This document shows positions 347-64,000 of a DNA stretch of 64,000 bases, one piece after another. Location: NCBI RefSeq assembly GCF_051903065.1, contig NZ_CP178438.1. One strand, 5' to 3'. Both the position numbers and the translations under genes were made by a program. The first letter of the stretch is position 1. Every line of letters starts with the position of its first letter. The DNA comes from Escherichia coli. Its GTDB lineage: Bacteria; Pseudomonadota; Gammaproteobacteria; Enterobacterales; Enterobacteriaceae. Below the pieces are notes generated by a model, which saw only the letters and a program-made list of their open reading frames with translations, did no database searches and was not told the DNA's origin.

Positions 347-3300
347 TTATATCTGCCCGCCTACACCTTTAAACTTCTCAATAAACGCGACGATCTTCTG
401 GAAAACCGTCTGTTTTTTCGTCTTATATTGCGGATTTAACGGACTGAGTTTTGGCAATGTCTCGTTTAATTCCGTGCCATTTTCGGTTGCGTATTCGCGT
501 TTTAAAGACGTGCGAATATAGCGTTTCGCCGCCTCTTCATTGAGATTTTCTTCTTTGATCAATGCTGCTGCTTCACGTTGCTGTTCGCGTTGAGCAAAGG
601 TAAAAAACGCGTCAATGATGCTGGCTTTATCCGGCAAATCATCCAGGTTCGTTTGCTGAATAAAATCGACCACCAATCCTTCTTTGGCACGGTTCCCAAG
701 GCTTGAACGAATTAAGCGTTTGACCTCTTCGGTCATTTCGCCCTTACCTTTGTTTTGTCTGTTGTGTTCGAAAATCAGTCCAAGGATATAATCCAGGTTT
801 ATTTCCTGAGACTTCAGCAAATCGACCTCAAAAACCACGTCATCCCAGTCGGTGGTTGATTTTTCTTTTTTGTCAGCTTCTTTCTCACGGCGCTGCCAGT
901 CACGAATATCGTTATAGGCTGAACGGTAATCCTGAATCTTGCGATCAGCAGGGAGACGAATCGTTTGTAATTCAGCGAACTTTTCATCATCCACATAATG
1001 TTCTGCTTTGAATTTTTCTACCGCAACAGGATCGCTAAGATCGATTTGTTGCAGGGCTTTCAGCATGGCAAATTCATCATAGTTTTGCAGGATGTTCTCG
1101 GCACGCAGGTATTCACCAAACAGTTTTACGAAGTCTTTCTTCTCTTTTTCACTTTCAATATTGGCAGGGTCAGGGAACCGTTGTTCCAGTTCTGAAACTA
1201 CTGCCATAAAGCCGCGTTTAGCTTCACCAGTGGCAGCATCAGTAAAGCCTTCCATATACTCTGCATAACTCTTTTCTAACACCACATTTTTGGTATTTTT
1301 ATCACCAAACAGCGTTATGGCATCAATGGTTGAGCGTTCCAGATCCCGGAAAGTGACGATGTTACCGAAGGTTTTAGTGGCGTTATAAATGCGGTTGGTG
1401 CGGGAAAATGCCTGCATCAGGCCGTGAAAACGCAAGTTTTTATCGACGAATAGCGTGTTCAATGTTGGAGCATCGAAGCCGGTTAAAAACATCCCCACGA
1501 CAATTAACAGATCGATATCTTGATTTTTAACCCGTTGGGCTAAATCACGATAGTAGTTCTGAAAACCGTTACTGTCGGTGCTGAAGTTAGTTTTAAAATA
1601 GCTGTTATACTCACGAATTGCAGCGTCAAGAAACTCTTTAGCACTGCTGTCCATTGCGCTGGTATCAAAAGTTTCATCGGAAATTTCACCAATGGCATTT
1701 TGCTCTTCATTGGCGGCAAAGGAGAAGATTGTCGCAACACGCAGCGGTTTATAAGTAGCCGATTTATTAGCTGCTTCCTCTTGTAACCGTTTAAACGTAG
1801 CGTAATAGGCTTTCGCGGCATCCACGCTACTCACTGCCAGCATGGCATTAAAGCCTTTGGAACTTGGGAAAGTACGGTGGGTCTTCTGGCGGAAGTTATT
1901 CAGAATATATTGCGTAATTTCCTGTATACGCATGGGATGAAGAAACGCCTGCTGATTTTCAGCCGCACTCAGTTTTTTCTCGTCGGTTTCTGTCTCTAAA
2001 GACTTAAACTGTGGCCGCACATCGTTGTAGTCCACCTTGAATTTGAGCACTTTTTCATCACGAATCGCATCGGTAATCACATATGAATGCAATTCACGAC
2101 CAAATACGCTGGCGGTCGTTTCTGAGCCTAAAGCGTTTTCCGGGAAAATAGGGGTACCGGTAAAACCAAACTGATAATAGCGTTTGAATTTCTTCTTCAG
2201 ATTTTTCTGCGCTTCTCCAAACTGGCTGCGGTGACATTCATCAAATATAAACACCACTTGCTGATTGTATACAGGCAGGTCGCTTTCTGCTTTCATCAGG
2301 TTATTAAGTTTCTGAATAGTGGTGACGATAATTTTGTTATCGTCCTTATCCAGATTTCGTTTAAGACCTGCTGTATTTTCCGAGCCGTTAACACTATCTG
2401 GCGAAAAACGCTGATATTCCTTCATGGTCTGGTAATCGAGGTCTTTCCTGTCGACCACAAAGAAGACTTTATCAATAAAGTCCAGTTCTGTTGCCAGACG
2501 TGCGGCTTTAAAGCTGGTCAGGGTTTTACCAGAACCGGTTGTGTGCCAGATAAAGCCACCGCTTTCGGGGGTAGACCAGTTTTTCGCTTTATAGGAGCTG
2601 TTGATTTTCCATAAGATACGCTCAGTGGCGGCAATCTGGTACGGTCGCATCACTAGTAGCGTTTGGCTAATATCGAACACGCTGTAGTTCACTAAGACAT
2701 TAAGCAGAGTATGTTTCTGGAAAAAGGTAGCGGTAAAGTCTTTGAGGTCTTTAATCAGCGTGTTGTCTGATTTCGCCCAATTCATGGTGAAATCAAAACT
2801 GTTTTTATCGCGCTTTGTGGTGTTGGCAAAATAACGGGTATCGGTGCCGTTAGAAATGACAAACAGTTGCAGATACTTAAACAGGGAATTTTCGCTGTTA
2901 AAACTCTCTTTACTGTAACGATGTATTTGGTTGAAAGCCTCACGAATCGCCACGCCGCGCTTTTTCAGTTCGATTTGTACCAGTGGTAAGCCATTAACCA
3001 GGATCGTGACGTCATAACGGTTAGCATGAGAACCCGCCTGTTCAAACTGCTGGATAATCTGCACCTTATTGCGCATGAGATTCTTTTTATCTATCAGATA
3101 GATATTTTCAAGACGCCCGTCATCAAAAATAAAGTCGCAGATATAGTCGATATGAATTTTACGGGTTTTATCCAGGATGCCATCGCTGGGGTTGTCCAGA
3201 TACTGCTCCGTGAAACGCCGCCACTCGCTGTCATTAAACACCACACCATTGAGGTTCTGAAGCTGTTCCCGAACATTGGACAGCATCGCCGACTGTGATT

Positions 3301-3463
3301 TTACCGAAATAAATTCATAGCCCTGATTCCGCAGGTCCTGAATCAGTTCCCGTTCCAGGTCCGATTCGCTCTGGTAGCTGTCGCCTGTTTGCTCAGCTTT
3401 GATGTACTTATCAAGGACGATAAAGTTATTGGATTCAGCAATGGTGTGTGTTTGATGAGTCAT
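347..3463 (-). CDS. hsdR: Type I restriction enzyme R subunit (HsdR), type IC / EcoR124I-like, 1038 aa
   Basis: ORF-track protein starts [14 protein letters not shown] and has the same length (1038 aa) as EcoR124I HsdR as I recall it; DEAD-box helicase motifs (TGSGKT, DECH) present. Confidence 0.9.
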
Positions 3464-3491
3464 AGCGCATCCTTTGTGCCGCCTGGCAAGG

Positions 3492-3521
3492 GCCGGAAGG
3501 GCGTTAAGAGTGACTTCCGGC
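3492..3521. promoter_or_regulatory. Perfect 8-bp inverted repeat (GCCGGAAG..14 nt..CTTCCGGC) in the hsdS-hsdR intergenic region; candidate regulatory element near the expected hsdR promoter
   Basis: Read directly from sequence. Type IC systems are described as having a separate promoter for hsdR; no T-tract, so not an obvious intrinsic terminator. Confidence 0.3.
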
Positions 3522-3584
3522 GCGTAAAAAATAGTCTATATACAGACCGGGTGTTAAGGTGGCCCGGTCGGTAGCAATGGTCAA

Positions 3585-4865
3585 TTAGTTACTGATAGTT
3601 TCAGGTTTGGGAAAACTGAACAGTAAATCACGATAGTACTCGTATTGTTTCTGGCGCAACTCGATTTCACGCGGGAGGCCTTCGGTGATGGAGTTTGTCA
3701 GAGTGTCGAATTTATCGAGTATTGCGACGATACGAGCTTGTTCCTTAAGTGATTTTTCGTGATCTTTAGGATATGGAACCGGAATCATAATTTTTGAAAA
3801 ACCATTAATGAGTAGTGTATTAACTTTTGTTCTGGCTACATACTTTGCTTTTTCAGAAATAAACGAATCGGTTTGCATGTAATAGGAAATAAATTTTGGA
3901 TTCAAAGAATGTCGAAAAGCATAACAGTGATCATGAATAGCGATATCGTCATCCCCAAGCCATGCCACTGCTTTACCAACGTCTTCTACAGTCTCCCCCA
4001 CGTCAGTTATCACGACATCTCCATGTTTGGCATAGCGTAATGACGCTGCCATATCAGCTCTAACCTGTGATAACGAATGAGTTGTGTAAACACCATATCG
4101 TGTATATATCTCACCATAATGGATTACACTGATACCACCATCTTCTACATAATCTGCTTTAGTAAAACGTTTTCCACGAATAAACTCACCAATTTCCCCC
4201 AAAGTCTTCCACTCAACCTCACCCTCTTTAAAACTCAACAACTGGTCGCGATAGTAGTTGTACTGTTTTTTACGCATGGTAAGCTCTGCTGTAAGCTCTG
4301 CTGTAAGCTCAGTAAATTTATCCAGAATCCGAACGATTTCAGACTGGATGGCAAGGGATTTTTCCGGATTGCCCGGGCAGGGGATGGGGATGAGTAGTTT
4401 TGACATCAATGCATTTGAGCTTAGATTCGGCTGTGCTCCGCCCCCTGCAAGGATATAAATAGTCTCTGTATTTAACAATAAAAAATGGTATAAATAATTA
4501 TTGTTTAGAATATTTTCTTTGGGTATAAATTTCCCAACACGTTGGTTAAGATAACATTTTATTCCTTTTTTATAAATTCCCACTTTTCCTGTAGTGGCAC
4601 CTGACATTGCAATCAATATATTTCCCATAGATACCTCAAAGGAGGATAAATCTTCCTTGTAATCATTTAGTGAAAAGTATTTCACCTCATCTAAGTCAAC
4701 ATTAAACCCATCTATATTTGTGATTCTAACTATCGGTAACCCAGTTTCTTTAAATAAGCTGCTTTTAAATGCAAATCCATTTTTAAAATCACAAACATCC
4801 TTCAGGGTTTTCCACTCAACCTCAACCCCATCCAGCAATTTTTCCAGATAACTCAACTCGCTCAT
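3585..4865 (-). CDS. hsdS: Type I R-M specificity subunit (HsdS), type IC, 426 aa, with central TAEL repeat
   Basis: Conserved type IC central and C-terminal regions ([49 protein letters not shown]); start ATG overlaps the hsdM stop (ATGA), indicating translational coupling. Confidence 0.9.
4279..4311 (-). repeat. 12-bp tandem repeat in hsdS encoding (TAEL)2 plus a partial copy; spacer-length determinant of type IC HsdS
   Basis: Plus strand GTAAGCTCTGCT x2 then GTAAGCTCA; the minus strand reads ACT GAG CTT ACA GCA GAG CTT ACA GCA GAG CTT, i.e. [11 protein letters not shown]. Confidence 0.85.
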
Positions 4866-6416
4866 TTCTGCACCCCGCAGCCTTCAATTTCAGCCACAAT
4901 CGCATCAATATCTTTGCGCAACTGGTCGATTTTGCTGACCGTGGTTTTCAGCTCAGCATTCAGCTCACCGATATCGATAATTTCGCGAGTATCTTTCGCT
5001 TCAACATAGCTGCTCACCGACAGGTTATAGTCATTCGCTACAACGGCTTCAAACGCGACAGATTTCGCCAGATGAGCAACATCTTCCTTGCTGGCAAATA
5101 CCTGCATAATCTGTTCGATATGGGCATCGGTCAGGATATTGTTGTTGGTCTCTTTTTTGAACAGTTCGCTGGCGTCAATAAACTGAACTTTGGTATCGGT
5201 TTTATGTTTAGACAGCACCAGAATATTGACGGCAATAGTGGTGCCAAAGAACAGGTTCGGTGCCAGTGAAATCACGGTTTCGACATAGTTATTATCGACC
5301 AGATACTGACGGATTTTCTGCTCCGCGCCGCCACGGTAAAAAATACCCGGGAAGCAAACAATCGCAGCGCGACCTTTGGCCGAAAGATAGTTCAGCGCAT
5401 GTAGTACAAAGGCGAAGTCAGCTTTGGATTTGGGGGCCAGGACGCCAGCCGGGGCAAAACGTTCATCGTTAATCAGCGTCGGGTCATCGCTGCCAATCCA
5501 TTTCACCGAATACGGCGGGTTAGAAACGATGGCATCAAACGGTTTTTCATCTCTGAAGTGCGGCTCAGTCAGTGTATTGCCCAACTTGATATCAAACTTG
5601 TCGTAGTTGATGTTGTGCAAAAACATGTTCATACGCGCCAGGTTATAGGTCGTATGGTTGATCTCCTGACCAAAAAAGCCTTCTTCGATGATATGGTCAT
5701 CAAACTGCTTTTTCGCCTGCAACAACAGCGAACCGGAACCTGCGGCCGGGTCGTAGATTTTGTTAACGTGGGTCTGCCCGTGCATAGCCAGTTGTGCAAT
5801 CAGCTTAGAGACGTGCTGCGGTGTAAAGAACTCGCCGCCTGACTTACCAGCATTCGCGGCATAGTTAGAAATCAGGAACTCATAGGCATCGCCGAACAGG
5901 TCAATCTGATGTTCGTTAAAGTCGCCAAGCTTTAACCCTTCAACCCCTTTCAGAACCGCAGCCAGGCGGGCATTTTTATCCTTAACGGTGTTACCCAGGC
6001 GGTTACTGGTGGTATCGAAATCAGCAAACAAACCTTTGATGTCAGCTTCTGAAGGGTAACCGTAAGCAGAACTTTCGATAGCAACGAAGATGCTGTTTAA
6101 ATCTGCATTCAGTCTGTCATTGGTATTTGCTTTCGCAGCTACGTTGCAGAAAAGCTGACTTGGGTAGATGAAGTAGCCTTTGGTTTTGATGGCATCGTCT
6201 TTAATGTCATCAGTTATTACGCTGTCATCCAGTTTCGCATAACAGATACTGTCATCACCGGCTTCAATATAGCTGGAAAAATTTTCGCTGATAAAACGGT
6301 AGAAAAGCGCGCCCAGAACGTATTGCTTAAAGTCCCATCCATCGACCGAACCTCTGACATCGTTAGCAATTTGCCAGATCTGGCGATGAAGCTCCGCGCT
6401 GCTGAAGACTGGTCAT
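4862..6416 (-). pseudogene. hsdM: Type IC R-M methyltransferase subunit (HsdM) with an N-terminal frameshift (apparent 2-bp deletion in a CGCGCG run at about codon 8)
   Basis: ATG at 6416 with an AAGGA ribosome-binding site reads [17 protein letters not shown] then stop. The frame encoding the conserved body ([16 protein letters not shown]...) has an in-frame TGA at 6413-6415 and no ATG/GTG/TTG start until the TTG at 6031, which is why the ORF track shows only 389 aa. Confidence 0.7.
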
Positions 6417-7914: not shown

Positions 7915-9969
7915 ATGGTTCAGGATTCATCAGCATTAGCCCCCTTCTTTCGTGCTCAAATTGAAAAAAATAATCAATACAATTCAGTTTGGGGCAAACA
8001 CTACCGCCAGCTTGTAGAACAGATTCAGGCCGAAAAACCAAACTTTTCTGAAGCCACGATTCGGCAGGTATGGTATGAACGTGACAATGGTGTCTCCAGC
8101 CTGATGCAAGGAGGGATGTCATTGGTTGAATTTGAAAATGCACAAAAAGACCTTCTAACGCTCACCCGTCAGATAGCAGAAGAGTGTACACAAGAAAATT
8201 ATAATCGGGTCATTGAACGCCTTATCAAACTTAAAGCGGACGGAGTATTAAATAAGGTATATAGGGCTCTTTGTAATCGTGCTTTTGCAGCAATATACCC
8301 ATCAAAAATTAGCAGTGTCGTGAATGTTAATAATTTTTTTAGTTGCTACAATTATTGCAACAACCATTTCCAGCTAGGTCTTTCCGGAGAACGGGAGTGG
8401 CTGGCTCGCAATGTTGATCTTAAAGAAACGCTAAATCGTGCGCTGGGTGATGATATCGACCCTATTGAGCTGAATATGTCACTTTGGCATCTCTATGCGT
8501 ATGAAATTCAGGATAAAAATGCTATCGGTTTAGTTGGAAGCGAAAGTGCTTTACAAGAAAATGAGCAAGAAGATGATGTTATAAGTTCGCCATTGCCTAA
8601 AAACACAATTCTCTATGGCCCGCCAGGTACAGGTAAAACATATCGTACTATTGAGCTTGCTGTACAAATTTGTGATCCGATCGCTTACTCCCTGCAGGAG
8701 GGTAAGGATGAGAGTGAAAAACGTCGCGAGTTGAAAAAGATTTATGATCAGCTTATCAAAGAAAATCGAGTGCGTTTTATCACCTTTCATCAGAGCTTTG
8801 GTTATGAAGAGTTTATTGAAGGTTTAAGAGCTGAGACTACTGATGACGGTAATGTAAAATACGAAATAAAGGCAGGTATTTTTAAGCAGATATGCGAGGA
8901 TGCCGCCTTTGGTCATGCTGGTGCGCAGGAAATGTTAGATAGCGCACTTACTCGCCTACAAGAACGTTTATCTGAAGGTGAAAATATCACGCTGGAAACA
9001 CAACAGGGTAAGGCCTTCCAGCTGACGTATAAAAGTCAAACCAACTTTGGAATTTTCCCGTCACAATCGAAAAAAGAGGATTTAGGACAGGGTTACAATG
9101 CCTATTTGAAGGATATTCGGCAAGTTTATCAGGATCCACGAGCAAAAGTACATAATCCATCTTATGTACGCAGTATCCTTAACTATTTAATTAATCAACG
9201 TTATCTGCCTCTGAATACTCAGAGCGTAGCTTCAGAAAAAAAGGAAAACTATGTTCTCATTATTGATGAAATAAATCGGGGTAATATTTCAAAAATTTTC
9301 GGTGAACTAATTACCCTTATTGAGCCATCTAAACGGGCTGGTGAGCCAGAATCGCTTAGCGTATTGCTGCCATACTCTTCCACTCCATTTAGTGTGCCGA
9401 ATAACCTTTATTTAATTGGTACCATGAACACTGCTGATCATTCGCTTACTGCACTTGATACTGCACTACGTCGCAGATTTGATTTTGAAGCGATGCTGCC
9501 AGATATTACTGTTCTGAAAGATACTGTCATTAAAGGTATTGATCTGCCTCGTCTATTGCAGACGCTTAACGATCGCATCCAGGTTTTATACGATAGAGAA
9601 CATATGCTGGGGCATGCTTTTTTTATCCCTGTTGTGCAGGCAAAAGAAGACGAAGCTCTGGCATTTGAAAGATTCAAACGGATTATGCGAAATAAGATAC
9701 TACCATTGCTGGAAGAATATTTTTACAATGACTGGCAAAAAATTCGCATGGTACTGGCTGATAACCAAAAAGAGGAAGCACCAGATCTTCAATTTGTACG
9801 TGAGGTGAAATACCAGAAAAAGTATGCCGATCTCTTTGGTGATAACGGAACAGATGACTTGGGAACCAGTTTTCACCTGGCAGCAGAGGATGACAACGTT
9901 TGGGACAATCCAATCGCCTGGCAGCAAATTTATGCACCTCAAAAAGAAAAACGCAGGAGTGCGGAATGA
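7915..9969 (+). CDS. McrB-family AAA+ GTPase (type IV restriction-like), 684 aa, with a non-canonical N-terminal domain of about 230 aa
   Basis: Motifs ILYGPPGTGKTY, FHQSFGYEEFIEG, IIDEINRGNISKIFGEL and GTMNTADHSLTALDTALRRRF parallel the EcoKI McrB GTPase motifs; residues 1-230 do not resemble the EcoKI McrB N-terminal 5mC reader as I recall it. Confidence 0.8.
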   Translation: MVQDSSALAPFFRAQIEKNNQYNSVWGKHYRQLVEQIQAEKPNFSEATIRQVWYERDNGVSSLMQGGMSLVEFENAQKDLLTLTRQIAEECTQENYNRVIERLIKLKADGVLNKVYRALCNRAFAAIYPSKISSVVNVNNFFSCYNYCNNHFQLGLSGEREWLARNVDLKETLNRALGDDIDPIELNMSLWHLYAYEIQDKNAIGLVGSESALQENEQEDDVISSPLPKNTILYGPPGTGKTYRTIELAVQICDPIAYSLQEGKDESEKRRELKKIYDQLIKENRVRFITFHQSFGYEEFIEGLRAETTDDGNVKYEIKAGIFKQICEDAAFGHAGAQEMLDSALTRLQERLSEGENITLETQQGKAFQLTYKSQTNFGIFPSQSKKEDLGQGYNAYLKDIRQVYQDPRAKVHNPSYVRSILNYLINQRYLPLNTQSVASEKKENYVLIIDEINRGNISKIFGELITLIEPSKRAGEPESLSVLLPYSSTPFSVPNNLYLIGTMNTADHSLTALDTALRRRFDFEAMLPDITVLKDTVIKGIDLPRLLQTLNDRIQVLYDREHMLGHAFFIPVVQAKEDEALAFERFKRIMRNKILPLLEEYFYNDWQKIRMVLADNQKEEAPDLQFVREVKYQKKYADLFGDNGTDDLGTSFHLAAEDDNVWDNPIAWQQIYAPQKEKRRSAE

Positions 9970-11276
9970 AATCTTCCAGTCATTTCACTGTGTTCGAATA
10001 CGGGCATTTAGTGAGTGAGGAAGGTGATGCCCGTATAAATAATGCGGTAGTGCTACCTGCAGACCTATTTAAATGGCTTGAGCTGCGCTGTCTGAAAGAC
10101 GATGCTGATAATACTCATCGTTTGCTCACCCTTAGCAGCCGGAATGGAGTAAAAACGCTGCAGGTAAAAAACTATGCAGGAGTAATCTCACTGCCAGGGG
10201 GGCGATTTCTCGAAATCCTGCCTAAAACAGGTCAGGATAATGAGGATACTGTTCGTCAACAAATACTGATGATGTTACGTACGTTAAAATCATTTCGTCA
10301 TATTGCCTCCTCTGAATCTGGCGTCAAAATATCTAAAATGCCTCTGATGGACATCTTTATTCAACAATTTATAGAGAGCGTGCGTAAGATTGTGCAGAGA
10401 GGGTTAAAACGTGACTATTTACGTCAGGAAGATAATCTTCCATGGATAAAAGGAAGATTACGGATCTCTGCACAATTAAGCAAAAACTGTATTAGGCGGG
10501 ATCTTTTTCAGGTGGAGTATGACGAGTACAGCGTCAATCGTCTGGAAAACCGGATACTCAAAACTGCAATCAATAAGATTAGTCGCCAGACCAGTAATCC
10601 ACAATTATTACAGCAGATAACACAGCTGCAGTTTCACTTTGAAAATATCACGTCAGTTCATGATGCTTATATAGCTTTCGAGCAGTTACACTTTGATAGA
10701 CACATGCATCACTATGAGCAAGCATTAGCGTGGGCGAAGATGATTTTATTGGGCGATTCTCCACACTGTATGTATGGGGATGTTAATGCTTTTTCACTGC
10801 TTTTCCCGATGGAGGCTGTTTTTGAATCTTTTGTGACGACATGGATGCGTTATCGTTATTATGATAAATGGCGAGTGGACGCACAGGTAAGTTCAAAAAA
10901 TCTGATTAGTTATAACGGTAAAGCTTTATTTAAGCTGCGGCCTGATATTTGTTTACGGCCTCGTAAAAGTACTACTGGTTCAGTTATTACCTGTGATATT
11001 AAATGGAAGATAGTAAATGGCAGAAAGGACAGTCTTGAACAATCTCAAGCCGATCTCTACCAAATGCTTGCCTATGGATTGAATTACCAGGAGGGGGAAG
11101 GTGATATGATTTTGATATACCCCTATCATAACGGATTTAATCAGCCATCTCCTCATCCTTATGAATTTAGCCATCAGAAGGAAAATAGGTTACGTTTATG
11201 GGTTGTACCTTTCTTTATTGGCGAGAGTTTACAGACATCAGAGTTGCATTTTCCTAGTGGGGCTGAATTTATTTAG
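9966..11276 (+). CDS. McrC-like PD-(D/E)xK nuclease partner, about 436 aa, translationally coupled to the McrB-like gene
   Basis: ATG overlaps the McrB-like stop (ATGA at 9966-9969); C-terminal PDICLRP...ITCDIKWK fits a PD..D-x-K nuclease motif. The ORF-track start at 9900 lies inside the upstream gene and is probably too far 5'. Confidence 0.75.
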   Translation: MKSSSHFTVFEYGHLVSEEGDARINNAVVLPADLFKWLELRCLKDDADNTHRLLTLSSRNGVKTLQVKNYAGVISLPGGRFLEILPKTGQDNEDTVRQQILMMLRTLKSFRHIASSESGVKISKMPLMDIFIQQFIESVRKIVQRGLKRDYLRQEDNLPWIKGRLRISAQLSKNCIRRDLFQVEYDEYSVNRLENRILKTAINKISRQTSNPQLLQQITQLQFHFENITSVHDAYIAFEQLHFDRHMHHYEQALAWAKMILLGDSPHCMYGDVNAFSLLFPMEAVFESFVTTWMRYRYYDKWRVDAQVSSKNLISYNGKALFKLRPDICLRPRKSTTGSVITCDIKWKIVNGRKDSLEQSQADLYQMLAYGLNYQEGEGDMILIYPYHNGFNQPSPHPYEFSHQKENRLRLWVVPFFIGESLQTSELHFPSGAEFI

Positions 11277-11338: not shown

Positions 11339-12211
11339 TCACCCCCTAAAAACCTCTTTCCGATGCCACTCCACAAACCCCTCAAAAGGGTAATTTTTAC
11401 GCACCTGTGGCAACGCAATAGTTTTCCCGTCAAAATCCCAGAATAATCTCTCAACGATCCCTCCGCCGTTTACCGCATCCGAGACCAGTATCCGCATATT
11501 TTCATCCAGGCCAATCGATCCTTTATCAAAGGCTTTATGGTGTATTGCGCAAAGTGCCAGACCATTGGGGATTTCACAAGGGCCGCCGTGCTGTTTCCAT
11601 TTTATATGCGCCGCTTCCAGCGCGACGGTGGTGTCGTCGTGGCGCATATTAAAGCCACATATCGCGCACTGGTATTTATAAGCGCGTAATACATTTTTGC
11701 GAAATAACGGGTCGCGCTGTTTACGGATTTGCTGGAGATCAAAACCCAGCTCGTCAGCAATTTCTTCCTGAATACTCTCGGTGAAGTGCGCTTCGAGTAT
11801 CTGTTGCGCCAGAGTATTGATGAGTTTTTTATTGCCGGTTACCAGGGCGTAGTGCTGTTCATCGAAACCGCCTGCAACGTGGTATTCGTTCAGTTCCTTC
11901 ACTGGCGGTTGTCGGCTGCTCCCTGCTGTTGAGCAACGCTCGGCATTGTGTAATTGCCAGAATCCGTCGCCTTGTAATCGCCAGAACGGCATATCAGGTC
12001 GGTACTGTGAACGCTGTGGCCCAAAACGTTCCAGTAAACTGTGCAGAGGTTCGTAGATTTCCGAGCCATAATCGAAAAGGCGCGGATGTCCATGCAGGTA
12101 TCCCGCTAATACGTATAGCAATAACAATGGCTTATGCGGCGCGCGCTGTTCACCCTTATGCCAGATTTTTATATTGGCAATTGCCTGCTGTAGCGATTTA
12201 CTGGAAGCCAT
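11339..12211 (-). CDS. HNH-family nuclease (C-terminal CAICG...HIKW...CAIHH motif) with an uncharacterised N-terminal domain; candidate modification-dependent restriction enzyme
   Basis: Cys/His HNH motifs in the C-terminal third; start chosen at ATG 12211 (AGGGA ribosome-binding site, protein begins MASSKSL); the ORF track extends to a TTG at 12268. Confidence 0.65.
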   Translation of the reverse strand: MASSKSLQQAIANIKIWHKGEQRAPHKPLLLLYVLAGYLHGHPRLFDYGSEIYEPLHSLLERFGPQRSQYRPDMPFWRLQGDGFWQLHNAERCSTAGSSRQPPVKELNEYHVAGGFDEQHYALVTGNKKLINTLAQQILEAHFTESIQEEIADELGFDLQQIRKQRDPLFRKNVLRAYKYQCAICGFNMRHDDTTVALEAAHIKWKQHGGPCEIPNGLALCAIHHKAFDKGSIGLDENMRILVSDAVNGGGIVERLFWDFDGKTIALPQVRKNYPFEGFVEWHRKEVFRG

Positions 12212-12347
12212 TGATATCCCTGGCAGTGAAATAATTGCGATCATGCTCGCAAATTTTCTGCTGTTCAAGCCTGCAAGTGAAGATATATTACTTTGATCTC
12301 ATTTGTTTTTTTGCTGCTTGTTCTGAGAACGTATAAGGACATTCTCT

Positions 12348-12998
12348 ATGAATAAACTCCCCGATCATCTTCCGCGGCGGTATATTATCGAAGCTATTCA
12401 TTTATGGGATGCGGGAGAAACTCATCAGTTCCAGCCTGCACGGTTGTATGAGATTGAATATCATGGCCGACGTTACCCCTCGAAGGCGATTGCTGGCATC
12501 GCAGCGACATTGATGACGGGGACGCAATTTACCCCTGCGGATTTCACCGGCGGAATAAAATCTAAATGCGTCAAGCTACTTATAGATCAGGGATTTCATA
12601 TTCATCAGGATAAAGCCGCTGCGGCTCCCATAGCCGATGTTCTGTTCCCGGATGAGTTGCCGTCGCAGGGGACCTACGTTGAAGGTGCGGCGATAAAGGT
12701 GACGGTAAACAGCTATGAACGCGATAAAAACGCTCGCGAGAAAGCAGTCGAATATCACGGATGCCAGTGCAACGTATGCGGCGTTGATCTGGTGAAGATC
12801 TATGGCGATATCGCTGAGGGCTTTATCCATATGCATCACCTGGTGCCGCTTTCAGCCATTAAAGAGGATTACCTGCTGGATCCAGTTAATGATTTACTTC
12901 CTGTGTGCCCTAATTGCCATGCGATGTTGCACCGACGCAAACCACCGTTTACGCCGGAGGAGTTAAAAGCGTTGATGGATGCGAATAAATCAAATTAA
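12348..12998 (+). CDS. HNH nuclease, 216 aa (C-terminal CQCNVCG...HMHHLVP...CPNCH, McrA-like HNH) with a distinct N-terminal domain
   Basis: HNH zinc-finger-type motif resembling the E. coli McrA C-terminus as recalled; transcribed divergently from the neighbouring HNH gene. Confidence 0.7.
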   Translation: MNKLPDHLPRRYIIEAIHLWDAGETHQFQPARLYEIEYHGRRYPSKAIAGIAATLMTGTQFTPADFTGGIKSKCVKLLIDQGFHIHQDKAAAAPIADVLFPDELPSQGTYVEGAAIKVTVNSYERDKNAREKAVEYHGCQCNVCGVDLVKIYGDIAEGFIHMHHLVPLSAIKEDYLLDPVNDLLPVCPNCHAMLHRRKPPFTPEELKALMDANKSN

Positions 12999-55528: not shown

Positions 55529-56473
55529 ATGACAAACTTCACGACCAGCACGCCGCATGACGCATTATTTAAATCTTTTCTCATGCACCCTGACACCGCG
55601 CGGGATTTTATGGAGATCCACTTACCCAAAGATTTACGTGAACTGTGCGATCTCGACAGCTTAAAACTGGAATCCGCCAGCTTTGTCGATGAAAAATTGC
55701 GGGCGCTACACTCCGATATTCTGTGGTCGGTAAAGACCCGGGAAGGCGATGGCTATATCTATGTGGTGATTGAACATCAGAGCCGTGAGGATATTCATAT
55801 GGCCTTTCGCCTGATGCGCTATACCATGGCAGTGATGCAGCGCCATATAGAGCATGATAAACGCCGGTTGCTACCGCTGGTCATCCCGATGCTGTTTTAT
55901 CACGGTAGCCGTAGTCCTTATCCCTGGTCCCTGTGCTGGCTGGACGAATTTGCCGACCCGACTACTGCACGGAAAGTTTATACTGCAGCGTTCCCGCTGG
56001 TGGATGTCACTGTCGTGCCAGACGACGAGATTGTGCAGCACCGCAGAGTCGCCCTGTTGGAGTTGATCCAAAAGCATATTCGCCAGCGCGATCTAATGGG
56101 GCTTATTGATCAACTGGCAGTATTACTGGTTACAGGGTGCGCTAATGACAGCCAGATAACCGCGCTGTTAAATTACATTTTACTGACTGGCGATGAAGCG
56201 CGTTTTAATGAGTTTATCAGTGAACTTACCCGTCGAATGCCACAACACAGGGAGCGAATAATGACGATTGCAGAGCGAATTCATAATGATGGATGGCTGT
56301 TAGGGATGGAAAAGGGGAAAGAAGAAGGGGAACAACGCCTCCTTAGATTGCTTTTGCAGAACGGTGAGGATCCTGAATGGATACAACGATATACTGGACT
56401 TTCGGCAGAGCAAATGCAGGCATTAGAGCAACCCTTGCCTGAAAGCAAGCGCGATCCATGGATCGAGTACTAA
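55529..56473 (+). CDS. rpnD: Recombination-promoting nuclease RpnD (YjiP/YjiQ region), intact 314 aa
   Basis: Rpn/YhgA-like PD-(D/E)xK N-terminus (YVVIEHQS...) and a continuous ORF. Confidence 0.75.
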
Positions 56474-58303: not shown

Positions 58304-58468
58304 ATGGAATTTCACGAAAACAAAGCCAAAACGCCGTTTATCAGACTTGTACAACTCTGGCAGGCGGTGAGGCGTTGGCGGCGGCAAATGCAGGCCCGAC
58401 GGGTGTTACAGCAGATGAGTGATGAACGGTTGAGGGATATCGGGTTACGCAGGGAGGATGTGGAGTGA
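58304..58468 (+). CDS. yjiS: DUF1127 small protein YjiS, 54 aa
   Basis: MEFHENKAKTPFIRLVQLWQAVRRWRRQMQARRVLQQMSDERLRDIGLRREDVE; missing from the ORF track because it is under the length cut-off. Confidence 0.8.
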   Translation: MEFHENKAKTPFIRLVQLWQAVRRWRRQMQARRVLQQMSDERLRDIGLRREDVE

Positions 58469-58510
58469 GGGGGGAAATTCCCCTTCCCGTGTGGGGAAGG
58501 GGAGAGAAAC

Positions 58511-58849
58511 TTAGCGTGGCGTTTTGCTACTAATCACCCCAATAAATTCCTGCACCTGCTTTTGTTTACGCACCGATAGCTTGCACACCTTTCGCAGCGA
58601 CTGCATCAGTTCGCTCTCTTCGATGGCGGGTGGTTGGGCGGTGAGGACAATACAGCCTTCCATCACTTTGACATCTACCGCCGTGCCAGTGGCAAAACCG
58701 GCGGCTTCCAGCCACTGACCTTTCAGGGTGATGGCGGGAATACGGCTGTAATCCGGGTAGCGGCTCGCATAACTCACGGTTAATTGACGGTTATTTGCCG
58801 GGGAGACTTCTGCTTCGAACGGTTGTGCAATAGAATGCGTGTCAGTCAT
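58511..58849 (-). CDS. symE: SOS-induced toxin SymE (type I toxin-antitoxin, AbrB-fold)
   Basis: [52 protein letters not shown]... matches SymE; adjacent to hsd as in K-12. Confidence 0.9.
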
Positions 58850-58920
58850 AACTGCTATTCCTTGAAAATAGTGATTGTGATGAGCGGTGCGGGTGTGTTG
58901 GCGCACATCCGCACCGCGCT
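58840..58920 (+). ncRNA. symR: Probable SymR antisense RNA overlapping the symE start and 5' UTR (ends approximate)
   Basis: Placed from the known symE/symR arrangement (antisense RNA of about 77 nt covering the symE translation start); boundaries not determinable by eye. Confidence 0.4.
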
Positions 58921-58926
58921 AAATAC

Positions 58927-58946
58927 CTGGATATATCATCAGTAAA
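58927..58946. promoter_or_regulatory. Putative LexA box upstream of symE (CTGGATATATCATCAG)
   Basis: CTG-N10-CAG palindrome with AT-rich centre, read directly; symE is a known LexA-regulated gene. Confidence 0.45.
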
Positions 58947-59063
58947 TACAGGGAAAGTCCAGCTAAAAATAGAAAATAATAAAAGCGTTACTGGAAAGAT
59001 CTGGAAGAGAAATTAACGTTAATTCAGAATTGCCGGATAACAAAGTGTATCCGGCCTTCATAA

Positions 59064-62000
59064 TTAATTTAAAGCACTCATATGGTGTTCTTTAAAATTC
59101 TCTGCCTGTGCCAGCACACCCATATAAACATCATCATTCGCTACTGGCGGGAACTTATGCTTGTGTAGAAGCAGAATAAGTTCAACTTTCAGTTTCGCTT
59201 TAATATCATCGCGTTTACTCCAGTCAGGATATTTCGATGTGTTGTCAACCACGCTTTTCATCTCTTTTGCCAGTGACAGCATTTTTTCATCGTCATAGGT
59301 GAACTGATATTTATCGCGCATATGAGCAAGAATGTCGAAAAACGCTTTTTCTTCAATATCAATACCTAAATCGGCCCAGGTGCCCATTTCGGTTTTAATA
59401 TCATAGATAATATCGGTCATTTCCTGACTGAATGTATCGAATTCTTCACCGTTGAGTACATCATCTTCTCGCCGCTCATTATAACGATCTATAATCGCCT
59501 GGAAGCGGCGGGTGAAGTTAATCCCTTGCAACTGGTTCACTTTCTTGAAGTCGCTGATCGCTTTTTCCAGTAATTTTTGTAATAACTGGATCTTCGTTGC
59601 CGGAAGTTTGATCTTGTTAATTCGCGCCAGATAATCTTCGTCAAAAATATCGATGGATTCCGCTTTTTTATCGCCAAGAAAATAAATTTCTTCTACGCCA
59701 TCAGCTTTTAGCGCTTCTGCAATCATTTCACGAACGCGTGCATTCATCTGGGTGACATCCGGTGCGTCACCTTTCGTCAGTTTGAAAACAATTGAACGAA
59801 CAGCAAGATAATAGTGAATATAGTCACGTTCTGTCTGTGATAATGCTTCGCTGCCGCAGCAGACGTCGTAGGCGGCTTTCATGCGTTTAACCAGTCCCAT
59901 AAACCGACGTTCAACTTTCTGGGTACGCAGAACGAATTCCGCCGCGCGGTTGAGGCAGGATAATTGCGCTTGTGGCTCACCACTAAAATAATCCCGACTG
60001 TCAAATTCGTAAAAGACTTGCCCCAACAAATCGAGATGGTTTTTAACTTCTATTACCGATTGCTGAATATCTTCAAAGTTGGTGGCATCAATGCGGGAAT
60101 ACATTGCCAGTGCCTGGTTCATCTGACTTTTAATGCCGATGTAGTCCACCACTAACCCTTTGCTTTTGCCTTCCAGTTTACGGTTAACGCGAGAAATAGT
60201 CTGGATAAGGTTATGTTTTTGTAAGGGCTTATCAATATAGATGGTATCCAGTTCCGGGACGTCGAAACCGGTCAGCCACATGTCAACAACAATGGCAATT
60301 TTGAAATTCGATTTAGCGTTTTTGAACTGCTTATCCAGCTCTTTGCGATATTCTTTTGTGCCCAGTAAATCATAAAGCGCCTCGTCGTCATCTTTACCGC
60401 GCGTCATGACCATCTTCACCATTTCTGAAGGCGGTAACTCTTTCTGCTCCTGCTCCGTCAGGACGACGCCATCAGGTGCTTGCTTCACTTCAAACCAGGC
60501 AGGGCGAATAGCTTTAAGCTGGCGGTAGAAATCCCAGGCAATTTCACGGCTGGCGCAAACAAACATGGCTTTGCCTTTTACGGTGGAACCTTCGGCTACG
60601 CGTTTTTCATAATGTTTAGCAAAATCTTCCGCGAGGGCTTTTAACCGGTCTTCATCACCCAGAACCGCATTCATGGTTGCGGTGGCTTTTTTGCTTTCGT
60701 CGATTTGCCACTCATTGGTGCCTGCGTTTGCGCACTCTTCGTAATACTTTTCGACTTCTTCCAGTTTGCTGGAGTCCAGGATCACTTTAGCCGCACGGCC
60801 TTCGTACACGATGCGCACAGTGATTTCATCCTGAACGGATTCGGTCATGGTGTAACTGTCGATCACCTCACCGAAGACATCGAGCGTCGCGTCAATCGGT
60901 GTGCCGGTAAAGCCAACATAGGTGGCGTTTGGCAGTGAATCGTGCAGGTATTTCGCAAAGCCATAAGTTTTGCGCACTTTTCCGCTTTCTTTATCGACGA
61001 TGACTTTCTGGTCGAGGTTAACCTGGCTGCGATGTGCTTCGTCCGAGATGCAAATGATATTGCTGCGTTCAGAAAGGAGTTCGGTGTCTTCGGTGAATTT
61101 ATGGATCGTTGTCAGGAATACACCGCCACTATTGCGTCCCGCCAGTTGATTACGCAAATCTTCACGGCTGGTAACAGGAACGATGGTGTCGTCGCCAATG
61201 TAATTTTTGGCGTTGCACATTTGCGCAGAAAGCTGATCGTCCAGATCGGTGCGGTCGGTGATCAAAACAATGGTCGGGCTGGCAAACTCCACGCTCTTCA
61301 TCAAAAGACGCGTTAAAAATTGCATGGTGTAACTTTTGCCACAGCCCGTTGCGCCAAAGTAGGTGCCGCCTTTACCGCTACCGAAAGGTTTACGCGCTTG
61401 CTTGATGCTGTAATAGAGTTTGCGGGCGGCATAGTACTGCGGATATCGGCAGCAAATTTTTACTTCGTGCTTGGCTTTATCCGGGAAGCAGATAAAGTTT
61501 TTAATCACATCCAGCAGACGTACCGGATGAAACAACCCCTGAATCATCGAGTGCAATGATGGAATTCCGTCCTGTTCACGGTTTTCATTGCCGGTGACTT
61601 TGCGCCATGAGTAAAAGTATTCATAGGGCGCAAACAGGTTGCCCATCCGGTTATTTACGCCATCGCTAATAATGCAGAGCGCGTTGTAGATAAACAGTTG
61701 CGGAATATCCCGGCGATAGCGTTTACAGAGCTGCTTCCAGGCATCGCCAATACTGGCTTCCTGCTCGCGCACCGCACTTTTAAATTCAAAGACGACCAGT
61801 GGCAGACCGTTGATATAGAGAATGCCGTCAGGAATACGAGTCTGATTATCTTTGCCGGAGATTTTAAGCTGGTTAACAATCTTAATCCGGTTAAGCGGCG
61901 GATTAATATAGAAAGGCGGGAGTTCCGCCGCCTGTTGCAACGGGACATCTTCGGCGTCAAATATCTGGCGCAGTGCGGCAGGTAGATGCCGGGTGTCGAG

Positions 62001-62339
62001 CAATTCAATATAGAGATCTTTTTGTTGCCGATCGTCGCGTTTGAACAGAAAACCATTTGCCAGCCAGCGACAAAATGTTTTGTTGCTTTCATAAAGGTCG
62101 GAGGCCGGAAGCGTGGTGAACTGTTTGATCAGTCGCTGAATCTCTTCTTCAGTAATGCCATCAGGCTGGTAGCGTGCCGCTAAATAATGACGGAGATCGT
62201 CTTCGATAATGACCTGATCGAGACTCGAACGTGGGACATTATCGCCGATCAGGTGTTGATATCCCTGATCCTGTAGCAGTTCAATGATCGCTTGTTCTAA
62301 TTTTGCTTCACTGAAAGAGAGACTCATATCGCGCTCCAA
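59064..62339 (-). CDS. hsdR: Type I restriction enzyme R subunit (HsdR), non-EcoKI allele, about 1090 aa
   Basis: Superfamily 2 helicase motifs (GATGCGKS, DEAH-like) and the overall type I HsdR architecture; N-terminus differs from K-12 EcoKI HsdR; start may instead be the ATG 12 nt downstream. Confidence 0.85.
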   Translation of the reverse strand: MERDMSLSFSEAKLEQAIIELLQDQGYQHLIGDNVPRSSLDQVIIEDDLRHYLAARYQPDGITEEEIQRLIKQFTTLPASDLYESNKTFCRWLANGFLFKRDDRQQKDLYIELLDTRHLPAALRQIFDAEDVPLQQAAELPPFYINPPLNRIKIVNQLKISGKDNQTRIPDGILYINGLPLVVFEFKSAVREQEASIGDAWKQLCKRYRRDIPQLFIYNALCIISDGVNNRMGNLFAPYEYFYSWRKVTGNENREQDGIPSLHSMIQGLFHPVRLLDVIKNFICFPDKAKHEVKICCRYPQYYAARKLYYSIKQARKPFGSGKGGTYFGATGCGKSYTMQFLTRLLMKSVEFASPTIVLITDRTDLDDQLSAQMCNAKNYIGDDTIVPVTSREDLRNQLAGRNSGGVFLTTIHKFTEDTELLSERSNIICISDEAHRSQVNLDQKVIVDKESGKVRKTYGFAKYLHDSLPNATYVGFTGTPIDATLDVFGEVIDSYTMTESVQDEITVRIVYEGRAAKVILDSSKLEEVEKYYEECANAGTNEWQIDESKKATATMNAVLGDEDRLKALAEDFAKHYEKRVAEGSTVKGKAMFVCASREIAWDFYRQLKAIRPAWFEVKQAPDGVVLTEQEQKELPPSEMVKMVMTRGKDDDEALYDLLGTKEYRKELDKQFKNAKSNFKIAIVVDMWLTGFDVPELDTIYIDKPLQKHNLIQTISRVNRKLEGKSKGLVVDYIGIKSQMNQALAMYSRIDATNFEDIQQSVIEVKNHLDLLGQVFYEFDSRDYFSGEPQAQLSCLNRAAEFVLRTQKVERRFMGLVKRMKAAYDVCCGSEALSQTERDYIHYYLAVRSIVFKLTKGDAPDVTQMNARVREMIAEALKADGVEEIYFLGDKKAESIDIFDEDYLARINKIKLPATKIQLLQKLLEKAISDFKKVNQLQGINFTRRFQAIIDRYNERREDDVLNGEEFDTFSQEMTDIIYDIKTEMGTWADLGIDIEEKAFFDILAHMRDKYQFTYDDEKMLSLAKEMKSVVDNTSKYPDWSKRDDIKAKLKVELILLLHKHKFPPVANDDVYMGVLAQAENFKEHHMSALN

Positions 62340-62421
62340 CCCTGGCTAATTTCTGGTAAGCATTCCCGTATCAGTAGAAAACCTTACCAGAAAGCCCCTG
62401 ATTTTACAGGGGCAAAATGCG

Positions 62422-63771
62422 TTATGCAGCTTCTGTATCGGTAGTGAGATCCGGAAGATCTTCCAGGGATAGCTCACCGGAGATGAGTTTCGGGAGCAGG
62501 GTGTCGCGGAGTTTTAATAATATTCTATTATTTTCATTATTTCTTGATATTGCTAATGAAATATTTGAACATATAGAATCAAATTTTCGTTCAACTTCAC
62601 CATTTTCAGAGTGAGATATAACGTGGCTTAGTATTTTACTGGGTGATGTGTGTTTCACAGTTGTGCCAGTAACACTACCTAAAACAGTATTTCTATAGTT
62701 TTGAGATATTAATACTTGGTATATAAATTCTTTTACGGAAGAGGGATGTTTTCCGAGAATGACTCGACCTAAACGTTGATTGTGGAGAAATTGAGTGTCT
62801 TCACGAGAAGGGACTCTAGCGGCATAACCTAAAGAATCACATTCTTTACTTAGATCTGTCATGGATACAAATATGTCATCTACTCCAAAAATATAATCCT
62901 TTGGGATTTCACCTTTATAATATTTGAGTTTGTCAAATTTAAATCCACCTCCGATTCTCACATTTCCTGGCGTCAACAATATCTGATTTGTTTTTGTTTC
63001 TGAAAAATATTCTCCTTTAAAAGCAAAGCCATGCTTAATATCAATTAATTTGCTTAAACCAGAATATATCCATTTAGCAGGTAAGTATCCTACTTCTGTT
63101 TCTTCAAATTCACTTGGGAAAAGCGAGCGGATTTCCGCCGGAAGTGGTTTAAAATCTGCACTATTACGTACTTTTTGACGCAATTCGGTGCGAGTTTGCA
63201 GGGCTTCCGGGATTGGATTTCCTGCATCCAGAGCGTTATCAATCACCGGATCAAAATCCACAAACCAGGATTTGAACAGGGTTTGGGACATTTGTTCCAA
63301 GGTTTGGTTCATGGATGAAAGTGTTGTGATTTTGTCATCAAAAGCTTTGAGACTCTTGACTATTAAATCTTGAACATTTAGCGAAGGAGCAGATATTTCT
63401 ACATTCGCTAGATCATTGATGGTTATTTGGCTTTGAGCAGAACCGCTATCAAGATATCGTAAATTACTCTGTAGAAACAGATAATAAAAATATTCTTTTC
63501 TTACTTTTGTTTCATCCAAATTTATTTTAATGGACAAATTTGTTAAATAACAATCTCTAGTCGTTATTTTAACATCGCCAGTTCCACCAACACCTCGGGC
63601 AACAACAATTAACTCACCTGCCGAAGTATTTTTTTCAGGGTAGCTTTCTGTGTATTTATATCCTGAAAAAATGACATAGTCACCTGTACCAACAAACTCC
63701 TTTTTAGGCATTTTTCCGTATGAAAATTCAGCTATATCACCTAAGCGATATATACACCACTTATTCCCCAT
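62422..63771 (-). CDS. hsdS: Type I R-M specificity subunit (HsdS), about 449 aa
   Basis: Two AT-rich target-recognition domains separated by conserved helices; ATG (MGNKW...) overlaps the upstream hsdM stop by 11 nt. Confidence 0.85.
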   Translation of the reverse strand: MGNKWCIYRLGDIAEFSYGKMPKKEFVGTGDYVIFSGYKYTESYPEKNTSAGELIVVARGVGGTGDVKITTRDCYLTNLSIKINLDETKVRKEYFYYLFLQSNLRYLDSGSAQSQITINDLANVEISAPSLNVQDLIVKSLKAFDDKITTLSSMNQTLEQMSQTLFKSWFVDFDPVIDNALDAGNPIPEALQTRTELRQKVRNSADFKPLPAEIRSLFPSEFEETEVGYLPAKWIYSGLSKLIDIKHGFAFKGEYFSETKTNQILLTPGNVRIGGGFKFDKLKYYKGEIPKDYIFGVDDIFVSMTDLSKECDSLGYAARVPSREDTQFLHNQRLGRVILGKHPSSVKEFIYQVLISQNYRNTVLGSVTGTTVKHTSPSKILSHVISHSENGEVERKFDSICSNISLAISRNNENNRILLKLRDTLLPKLISGELSLEDLPDLTTDTEAA

Positions 63772-64000
63772 AACCCAGCGCCTCCAAATTCTTGCGAATC
63801 GCACGATCCAGTTCTTCCGCCTGCTTCATCTGCTCAAACAACGTCTTCGACAATTCGCGCATTTTCGTCTCAAATGCCACGCCGTCTTCTTCCTGCTCGG
63901 CTGCACCCACATAGCGGCCCGGTGTCAGTACGTAGTCGTTATCTTTAATATCTTGCAGGGTTGCAACTTTGCAGAAGCCTGCCTGGTCTTCATATTTTTC
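63761..64000 (-). CDS. hsdM: Type I R-M methyltransferase (HsdM), 3' end only; the gene runs off the window edge
   Basis: The minus-strand frame reads ...GFCKVATLQDIKDNDYVLTPGRYVGAAEQEEDGVAFETKMRELSKTLFEQMKQAEELDRAIRKNLEALGYGE then stop, a typical HsdM C-terminus. Confidence 0.8.
   Translation of the reverse strand, partial: EKYEDQAGFCKVATLQDIKDNDYVLTPGRYVGAAEQEEDGVAFETKMRELSKTLFEQMKQAEELDRAIRKNLEALGYGE

Follow-up and report, generated by a model that had tools for sequence, protein, structure and literature searches.

A probable type ID restriction-modification system with a hybrid HsdS at the immigration control region of an Escherichia coli chromosome

The immigration control region (ICR) is a long-known variable region in E. 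coli. Members of one type I restriction-modification family typically share more than 80 to 90% identity in HsdM and HsdR. Type ID is founded on enzymes from three genera, i.e., StySBLI (Salmonella), EcoR9I (E. coli), and KpnAI (Klebsiella), and type IE (KpnBI) is, to our knowledge, known only from one Klebsiella strain. Between families, published identities are 17 to 26% for HsdR and 25 to 33% for HsdM (PMC2481252). A survey from 2025, covering 9,040 genomes of Enterobacteriaceae, found only types IA (14%), IB (11%), and ID (12%) at the ICR, their shares adding up to the figure given for all type I systems there; other ICR genes were Mrr, McrBC (6%), GmrSD, and the toxin-antitoxin genes brnAT, symE/symR, and rpn (PMC12707154). 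The same survey places the methylated adenines of type ID targets 6 bp apart (D = 6 in its Table 1) and reports different gene sets for the ICR and leuX islands (PMC12707154). Gene-order types in general, not the ICR locus, are covered in PMC12255300.

Here we describe the ICR of an E. coli strain, read from a stretch of 64,000 nucleotides (contig NZ_CP178438.1; hereafter, the window). We consider, with a probability of just under nine in ten, that it carries a type ID system with a hybrid HsdS beside an "empty" left cassette, type ID being assigned by elimination, locus, frequency, and taxon spread.

Gene layout at the immigration control region

The window ends in the gene run yjiS (plus strand), symE, hsdR, hsdS, and the 3′ end of hsdM (all minus strand). 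Coordinates were taken from direct ORF reading together with the PGAP gene calls for a region of E. coli 23CRST027 (NZ_AP045789.1) that matches at 100% identity. The features are as follows.

58304 to 58468, plus strand: yjiS (DUF1127), an annotated ORF 91% identical to K-12 YjiS; conserved left anchor of the ICR
58469 to 58510, no strand: yjiS-symE spacer of 42 bp, the "empty" left cassette, defined by sequence and breakpoints
58511 to 58849, minus strand: symE, 112 residues; NCBIfam NF010128 at 219 bits (cut-off, 132); 92% identical to K-12 SymE
58844 to 58920, plus strand: symR antisense antitoxin RNA; Rfam RF01809 at 91.7 bits (gathering score, 61), full length 1 to 77
58981 to 59063, no strand: start of the right-hand variable cassette, from blastn breakpoints
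59064 to 62327, minus strand: hsdR, 1,087 residues; TIGR00348, Pfam, and motifs
62394 to 62413, minus strand: G+C-rich hairpin and, after it, a short run rich in T (TTTCT), within the 94 bp between hsdS and hsdR; consensus scan
62422 to 63771, minus strand: hsdS, 449 residues; Pfam Methylase_S and three-allele alignment
63761 to 64000, minus strand: hsdM, 3′ end only; last 240 nt, i.e., the last 79 codons and the stop

The flanks were colinear with K-12 and Sakai, and homology broke only between yjiS and symE and between symE and yjiA. This region is the ICR (defence hotspot 36) of the E. coli chromosome, and its type I system is one of three common alternative cassettes there. By blastn, homology to K-12 and Sakai ended at window position 58980, beyond the symR gene that overlaps the start of symE; the right-hand cassette occupies the interval from symE/symR to yjiA and extends past the window end. 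Nissle 1917 (NZ_CP007799.1, 5015543 to 5025567) has the same layout, in the order of yjiS, a 42-bp spacer, symE, hsdR, hsdS, hsdM, an Mrr-like gene, brnT, brnA, and yjiA.

The EcoKI locus of K-12 occupies the same chromosomal site, with the same flanking yjiS, symE/symR, and yjiA; it likewise encodes a type I system of three subunits and lies beside a gene of the Mrr family. It differs in gene order, R-M-S with symE adjoining hsdS, whereas the genes of the window are transcribed M-S-R, all from the minus strand; the preliminary description had proposed this difference, and a reading of both loci agrees with it. The same description had listed symE followed by hsdR, hsdS, and hsdM, which holds as an order, although only the last 240 nt of hsdM lie in the window. 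The K-12 left cassette further contains mcrBC, yjiT, and yjiV, and K-12 lacks brnTA.

At the left cassette, none of mcrB, mcrC, yjiT, and yjiV was found in the window interval between yjiS and symE, and comparison with K-12 across this interval likewise confirmed their proposed absence, as well as the 42-bp distance at 58469 to 58510. The K-12 equivalent of this spacer is 7.6 kb long (yjiT, yjiV, mcrC, and mcrB), Sakai and AST215 have GmrSD-like genes at this position, and Nissle 1917 has the same 42 bp with one base different. The left cassette is therefore the "empty" variant, with no type IV enzyme (McrBC or GmrSD) there. The spacer holds an inverted repeat, CCCCTTCCC-GTGT-GGGGAAGGGG, for which we infer a bidirectional terminator role. 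Homology to K-12 was lost 10 nt past yjiS (window 58478) and regained 21 nt inside the symE 3′ end (58532). The six C-terminal residues of SymE are unlike those of K-12, Sakai, and AST215, in which the tail reads FIGVI|AGKQKVA followed by the stop. Since one left-cassette breakpoint lies within the last seven codons of symE, each left-cassette haplotype would have its own SymE tail.

The earlier notion that mcrBC is missing from its canonical site needs rewording. K-12-type mcrBC was found, once per genome, in 582 of 5,426 complete E. coli genomes; its absence is therefore the norm, and K-12 represents a minority state.

Subunits and family of the type I system

HsdR scored 468 bits against TIGR00348 (cut-off, 285) and contains the Pfam domains HSDR_N, SWI2_SNF2, T1R_D3-like, and T1RH-like_C, with ResIII also matched. 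Both catalytic parts expected of a type I HsdR were recognized, i.e., an N-terminal PD-(D/E)xK nuclease region (P166-D167...E181-F-K183) and a superfamily 2 ATP motor of the SWI2/SNF2 kind (GCGKS at 328, DEAH at 429); the C-terminal domain is HindI-like. The complete HsdM, 539 residues long, was taken from the sequence identical to the window over the hsdM part, the rest of the gene lying beyond the window. It carries Pfam HsdM_N and N6_Mtase (E value of 7e-106) and the SAM and catalytic motifs of an N6-adenine methyltransferase (DPCCGSAG at 210, NPPF at 288). Its score of 175 bits lies below the NCBIfam hsdM equivalog cut-off of 243, which reflects only divergence from the seed families of that model. 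The protein accessions are WP_047623656.1 for HsdM and WP_047623651.1 for HsdR. As in type I systems generally, the three genes are clustered, contiguous on one strand, with hsdM and hsdS overlapping by 11 nt. The hairpin in the hsdS-hsdR spacer is a candidate that may act as an attenuator between the hsdM-hsdS unit and hsdR; in promoter and terminator consensus scans of the locus, hits were at chance level and hairpin-type sites did not exceed the shuffled expectation.

With all three ORFs full length and catalytic motifs present, the system is predicted to be intact. A decaying, non-functional remnant might be suspected, since hsdR remnants occur in other genomes as matches of 3 to 20% coverage annotated as fragments and the type IC system of the same window is frameshifted. 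This is very unlikely, however, given full-length genes with intact motifs, HsdR and HsdM proteins at least 99% identical to copies in unrelated strains, and an HsdS whose exact sequence is present on 103 contigs.

To place this intact system in a family, we compared its predicted proteins with those of types IA, IB, and IC. Against EcoKI (IA), HsdM was 24% identical (E value of 6e-26) and HsdR 25% over 219 residues, far from the high identity expected within type IA; overall, the proteins were 20 to 25% identical, and EcoKI HsdR, of 1,170 residues, lacks similarity outside the motor region. The proposal of a non-EcoKI allele therefore stands, while the description of these proteins as unrelated to EcoKI does not, since they are homologous to it at the distance usually seen between families. 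Alignment to type IB representatives had been suggested as a check, and it pointed the same way: using the Sakai proteins annotated by PGAP as "EcoAI/FtnUII family" as the reference, HsdM was 27% identical and HsdR gave no meaningful match to the Sakai type IB HsdR. The short HsdM and long HsdS of type IB were not seen either, the sizes being 539 and 449 residues here versus 489 and 584 in Sakai. EcoR124I (IC) has the same hsdM-hsdS-hsdR order, and its HsdR is likewise made up of a nuclease, a motor, and helical parts, but the ICR proteins are only distantly similar to it (HsdR, E value of 2.7e-24 over 367 residues; HsdM, E value of 1e-38), and the true type IC system of the window is the leuX-side locus at 347 to 6416. 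As computed from the predicted proteins, identities to all three families fall at the published between-family levels.

The hsdR allele was present in 862 of the 5,426 complete genomes, about one in six, compared with 935 for type IA hsdR and 941 for type IB hsdR. The ICR type I locus is thus ordinary and already known. An allele that is neither IA nor IB but occupies the ICR in 16% of E. coli genomes is almost certainly the type ID of the survey, which found only IA, IB, and ID at that site (PMC12707154). Consistent with this, the system resembles the type ID enzymes in being a serB-linked ICR allele between yjiS and yjiA, allelic with IA and IB and the third family there, in being distinct from types IA, IB, and IC at 20 to 30% identity, in its occurrence in E. 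coli, Salmonella, and Klebsiella, and in an ICR frequency matching the published ID share; among these features of locus, family distance, taxa, and frequency, none set it apart from type ID. The 90%-identity clusters of HsdR and HsdM included members from Salmonella, Klebsiella, Citrobacter, and Enterobacter, under generic names with no enzyme name among them.

A type IE (KpnBI-like) system or an unnamed sixth enterobacterial family would also stand apart from IA, IB, and IC. The compared references were of types IA, IB, and IC, and the Klebsiella members of the 90% clusters could be KpnBI-like instead of KpnAI-like. We nevertheless regard this as unlikely, because the cluster spans E. coli, Salmonella, and Klebsiella, as the type ID family does, while type IE comes from one Klebsiella strain and is not reported at the ICR, where the survey has only IA, IB, and ID (PMC12707154). 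A literature search on the Nissle 1917 methylome for the adenine spacing found nothing relevant. Type ID remains the preferred assignment.

Hybrid specificity and cassette exchange

HsdS showed the arrangement typical of type I specificity subunits, with two variable target recognition domains (TRDs) split by conserved regions. In the three-allele alignment, the variable blocks (residues 1 to 144 and 227 to 417) alternated with two near-invariant ones, giving TRD1 at about residues 1 to 144, a central conserved region at 145 to 226, TRD2 at 227 to 417, and a conserved C terminus at 418 to 449. Pfam Methylase_S covers residues 4 to 160, i.e., the first TRD only, and the second half weakly matched the EcoKI HsdS profile. 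The G+C content of hsdS is about 0.40, compared with about 0.50 in the flanks.

Across the three strains, HsdR and HsdM were 99.1 to 99.6% identical and HsdS only 37 to 72%. HsdR was 99.4 to 99.6% identical to the Nissle 1917 and AST215 proteins; relative to Nissle 1917, HsdR reached 99.6%, HsdM 99.4%, and HsdS TRD1 99.3%, but TRD2 is unrelated (16% identity) and matches that of AST215 instead. Judged by these alignments, HsdS is a clean mosaic of a Nissle 1917 TRD1 and an AST215 TRD2, and half of the recognition sequence should consequently differ from that of Nissle 1917. Near-identical HsdM and HsdR combined with TRDs shuffled among strains also have the look of a subunit-exchange family.

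By analogy with the type I family, an M2S1 core would methylate one adenine per strand of a bipartite target, with the two HsdS TRDs reading the two half-sites. On an unmethylated target, two HsdR subunits would join, their ATP-driven SWI2/SNF2 motors would pull DNA in, and the N-terminal PD-(D/E)xK nuclease would cut at a distance. Specificity would be set by the hybrid HsdS, with its TRD1 common to Nissle 1917 and its TRD2 common to AST215.

We tentatively suggest, as a possibility somewhat short of even odds, that the symE/symR block serves as a recombination anchor between left and right cassettes that assort independently and, in addition, that the hybrid HsdS yields a not-yet-characterised recognition sequence. 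The left cassette would then be empty, GmrSD-like, or mcrBC (type IV enzyme), and the right one would contain type I, Mrr, and toxin-antitoxin genes.

The leuX-side island and the restriction profile of the strain

The preliminary description had counted two type I systems within 64 kb and a McrBC-like system relocated near leuX. The leuX-side genes were read from the window itself, not from 23CRST027, because upstream of position 47396 the two sequences are not the same and differ in the placement of IS903B. Two features were recorded.

347 to 6416, minus strand: leuX-side type I locus (HS37), type IC; hsdR at 347 to 3463, hsdS at 3585 to 4865, and a frameshifted hsdM at 4862 to 6416
7915 to 11276, plus strand: McrB-like and McrC-like pair, from ORFs at 7915 to 9969 (684 residues) and 9966 to 11276 (436 residues)

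The second type I locus is indeed present, and its HsdR matched the EcoR124I HsdR (PDB 2w00) end to end over residues 1 to 1038 (2,253 bits). A second working system is doubtful, however: owing to a 2-bp deletion after nt 17 of hsdM, the start codon is no longer in frame with the rest, and the gene is labelled "frameshifted" by PGAP in 23CRST027. Because of this frameshift, the leuX-side type IC system is probably inactive.

The McrBC-like pair is likewise where it had been described. It adjoins a copy of the 3′ end of leuX in a strain whose ICR lacks mcrBC, which could suggest that mcrBC left the ICR for the leuX island. Such a move has almost no probability in light of the proteins, which are only 34% (McrB-like) and 22% (McrC-like) identical to K-12 McrB and McrC over part of their length. 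The McrB-like match is confined to the AAA+ part (an AAA_5 domain was found in the pair), in a protein of 684 versus 459 residues whose N terminus differs from that of K-12 McrB, and in NCBIfam the pair reached 117 and 107 bits, far short of the 637 and 338 that the equivalog cut-offs require of orthologues. The same pair is also found at leuX in other strains, and the low count and single copy of K-12-type mcrBC among the complete genomes speak against a move as well. On its predicted proteins, the pair is a distant McrBC-family paralogue that belongs to another defence island (HS37), and not a relocated mcrBC.

The active type I barrier of this strain is thus probably a type ID system with a Nissle 1917/AST215 hybrid specificity. 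In practical terms, the predicted profile combines the lack of K-12-type McrBC, a probably dead type IC system, and an intact, distant McrBC-like pair near leuX, and it bears on transformation efficiency and on the interpretation of methylomes. Beyond such bookkeeping the locus has little importance; it is a textbook case of ICR cassette exchange and TRD shuffling.

Layout of the immigration control region

The right end of the window carries the immigration control region (ICR), the variable defence hotspot between yjiS and yjiA, and its last 8 kb are 100% identical to Escherichia coli 23CRST027 (NZ_AP045789.1, 224763-232763). PGAP annotation of the 23CRST027 record, the ORF list, and the raw sequence concordantly gave the following layout.

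Genes of the ICR within the window
58304-58468, +, yjiS (54 aa)
58469-58510, yjiS-symE spacer (42 bp)
58511-58849, -, symE (112 aa)
58844-58920, +, symR (77 nt; Rfam RF01809, 91.7 bits; gathering score, 61)
59064-62327, -, hsdR (1087 aa)
62422-63771, -, hsdS (449 aa)
from 63761, -, hsdM (539 aa in full; the window holds only the last 240 nt)

The hsdM and hsdS genes overlap by 11 nt. Past the window end, the 23CRST027-matching stretch (L001, in which position 14981 is window 58980) extends the right cassette with a 388-aa Mrr-like nuclease and brnT/brnA (L001 21445-23384), followed by yjiA. The nuclease has a Pfam Mrr_cat match and shares 31% identity with the catalytic half of K-12 Mrr; its N-terminal 240 residues are without a Pfam match. 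On the window side, an Rpn-family (rpnD-like) gene at 55529-56473 (+) is an intact 314-aa ORF; the corresponding K-12 rpnD is annotated as a pseudogene.

The K-12 ICR reads yjiS, yjiT, yjiV, mcrC, mcrB, symE, symR, hsdS, hsdM, hsdR, mrr, yjiA. This comparison bears out the M-S-R order of the hsd genes reported in the preliminary description, as opposed to R-M-S in K-12, and both the ORFs and the raw sequence agree with its 42-bp gap between yjiS and symE, where K-12 carries yjiT, yjiV, mcrC, and mcrB. The claim that mcrBC is missing from its canonical site holds insofar as no mcrBC lies between yjiS and symE. The word "canonical" does not, since, of 5426 complete E. coli genomes, just 582 have K-12-type mcrBC, and many of these 582 belong to laboratory strains, so that absence is the common state.

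According to blastn, the flanks are colinear with K-12 and O157 Sakai and enclose two separate variable intervals. Homology to both strains stops 10 nt past yjiS (58478), restarts at 58532, 21 nt within the symE 3′ end, extends across symE and symR as far as 58980, and is then lost up to yjiA. Between homology breakpoints, the left interval (left cassette) is 53 bp in the window and Nissle 1917, compared to 7.6 kb in K-12 (yjiT, yjiV, mcrCB) and to GmrSD/DUF262-like genes in Sakai and AST215. Each left-interval variant carries its own final symE codons: with the empty cassette (window, Nissle), SymE ends in SSKTPR (58511-58531, -), whereas with mcrBC or GmrSD (K-12, Sakai, AST215) the tail is FIGVI-AGKQKVA*, which places one cassette breakpoint within the symE coding sequence. 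AST215 shares its right cassette with the window but has a left cassette of the GmrSD type, indicating that the two cassettes assort independently.

Family of the ICR type I system

The ICR proteins were compared by BLASTP and phmmer with three type I families. Against EcoKI (type IA), HsdM was 24% identical (E = 6e-26), HsdR 25% over 219 aa, and HsdS about 20%, in line with the earlier call of a non-EcoKI allele. The Sakai type IB system (annotated "EcoAI/FtnUII family") was also only distant, with 27% identity for HsdM (E = 2e-19), no meaningful match for HsdR, and no match for HsdS. EcoR124I (type IC) gave E = 1e-38 for HsdM and 3e-24 for HsdR. Judged by these alignments, the similarity to IA, IB, and IC is solely of the between-family kind wherever compared; identity between families is typically 17 to 26% for HsdR and 25 to 33% for HsdM, versus more than 90% within a family (PMC2481252). 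The C-terminal domain of HsdR is HindI-like (PF11867, E = 1e-86). At 90% identity, the HsdR and HsdM clusters comprise 5382 and 2518 members, respectively, and span E. coli, E. marmotae, E. fergusonii, Salmonella, Klebsiella, Citrobacter, and Enterobacter.

A 2025 EcoSal Plus review of 9,040 Enterobacteriaceae genomes found only types IA (14%), IB (11%), and ID (12%) at the ICR, along with Mrr (22%), McrBC (6%), GmrSD (12%), brnAT, symE/symR, and rpn toxin-antitoxin genes (PMC12707154). Among the 5426 complete E. coli genomes, counting hsdR as present when at least 80% of the gene was found, the window allele occurred in 862, compared to 935 for IA and 941 for IB. Given its location at the ICR, its belonging to neither IA nor IB, this frequency, the company of brnTA and an Mrr-like gene, and its being common to Salmonella and Klebsiella, the system is very probably what the review calls type ID (named enzymes StySBLI, EcoR9I, and KpnAI), with a probability that we put close to 0.9.

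The leuX-side locus

A second type I locus does lie at the leuX end of the window. Window positions 99-121 duplicate the 3′ end of leuX (tRNA-Leu), whereas positions 1-98 bear no relation to the tRNA; ARAGORN found no whole tRNA within the window. Positions 1-121 look like an att repeat ending another leuX-integrated island, upstream of the window. The leuX-side HsdR (347-3463) matches EcoR124I HsdR along its entire 1038 residues (2253 bits), which identifies this system as type IC and fits the published distribution, in which type IC is found at the leuX hotspot (HS37) and is absent from the ICR (PMC12707154).

In the leuX-side hsdM (4862-6416, -), 2 bp are deleted after nt 17 compared to the intact copy of strain D8 (L005 7692-9248); this puts the ATG out of frame, with the nearest in-frame start 385 nt downstream. 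PGAP likewise annotates the type IC hsdM of 23CRST027 as frameshifted. Since HsdM is required for modification and restriction alike, the type IC system is probably inactive, which argues against two working type I systems.

An McrBC-like pair is intact in the same locus.

7915-9969, McrB-like (684 aa)
9966-11276, McrC-like

Over part of their length, these proteins share 34% and 22% identity with K-12 McrB and McrC, respectively, and they score far under the NCBIfam equivalog cut-offs. The proposed relocation of K-12 mcrBC was therefore rejected; by sequence, the pair is a different McrBC-family system. Its neighbours are a gene at 11339-12268 (-), for which the annotation of related strains gives a phosphorothioated-DNA-binding restriction endonuclease, and, at 12348-12998 (+), an HNH endonuclease gene, so that the leuX island stacks several modification-dependent nucleases. 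A 9-bp target duplication (46330-46338 and 47396-47404) flanks an IS903B copy at 46338-47395. This site is empty in 23CRST027, whose copies interrupt the McrB-like gene and follow the HNH gene, pointing to recent movement of the element in this lineage.

Specificity mosaic and prior knowledge of the ICR

Type ID systems have been known at the ICR since the 1990s, and Nissle 1917 has an arrangement identical to that of the window. Cassette-like variation of the yjiS-yjiA interval has been on record since 2004, as cited in passages of PMC2481252 and PMC3874165, and was resurveyed in 2025 (PMC12707154). Nothing at the locus departs from the published picture; the observation in the preliminary description is confirmed and its interpretation partly supported.

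All three ICR hsd genes are intact. HsdR retains nuclease (P166-D167...E181-x-K183) and motor (GCGKS at 328, DEAH at 429) motifs, and HsdM retains DPCCGSAG and NPPF. Across the copies of the window, Nissle 1917, and AST215, HsdR and HsdM are 99.1 to 99.6% identical, compared to 37 to 72% for HsdS, which aligns in the classic manner, with two variable target recognition domains (TRDs) and two conserved regions. GC content is about 0.40 across hsdS versus about 0.50 in its flanks. The window HsdS is a clean mosaic, with TRD1 (aa 1-144) 99.3% identical to Nissle 1917, TRD2 (aa 227-417) 100% identical to AST215, and the crossover within the conserved central region. Such TRD shuffling inside a family is textbook (PMC3874165), and the exact HsdS sequence is found on 103 public contigs, so this specificity, too, occurs elsewhere. 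By analogy with established type I enzymes, an M2S1 core would methylate a bipartite target, and at an unmethylated target R2M2S1 would translocate DNA with ATP and cleave it at a distance. The expected recognition sequence joins a half-site read by the Nissle enzyme to a half-site read by the AST215 enzyme.
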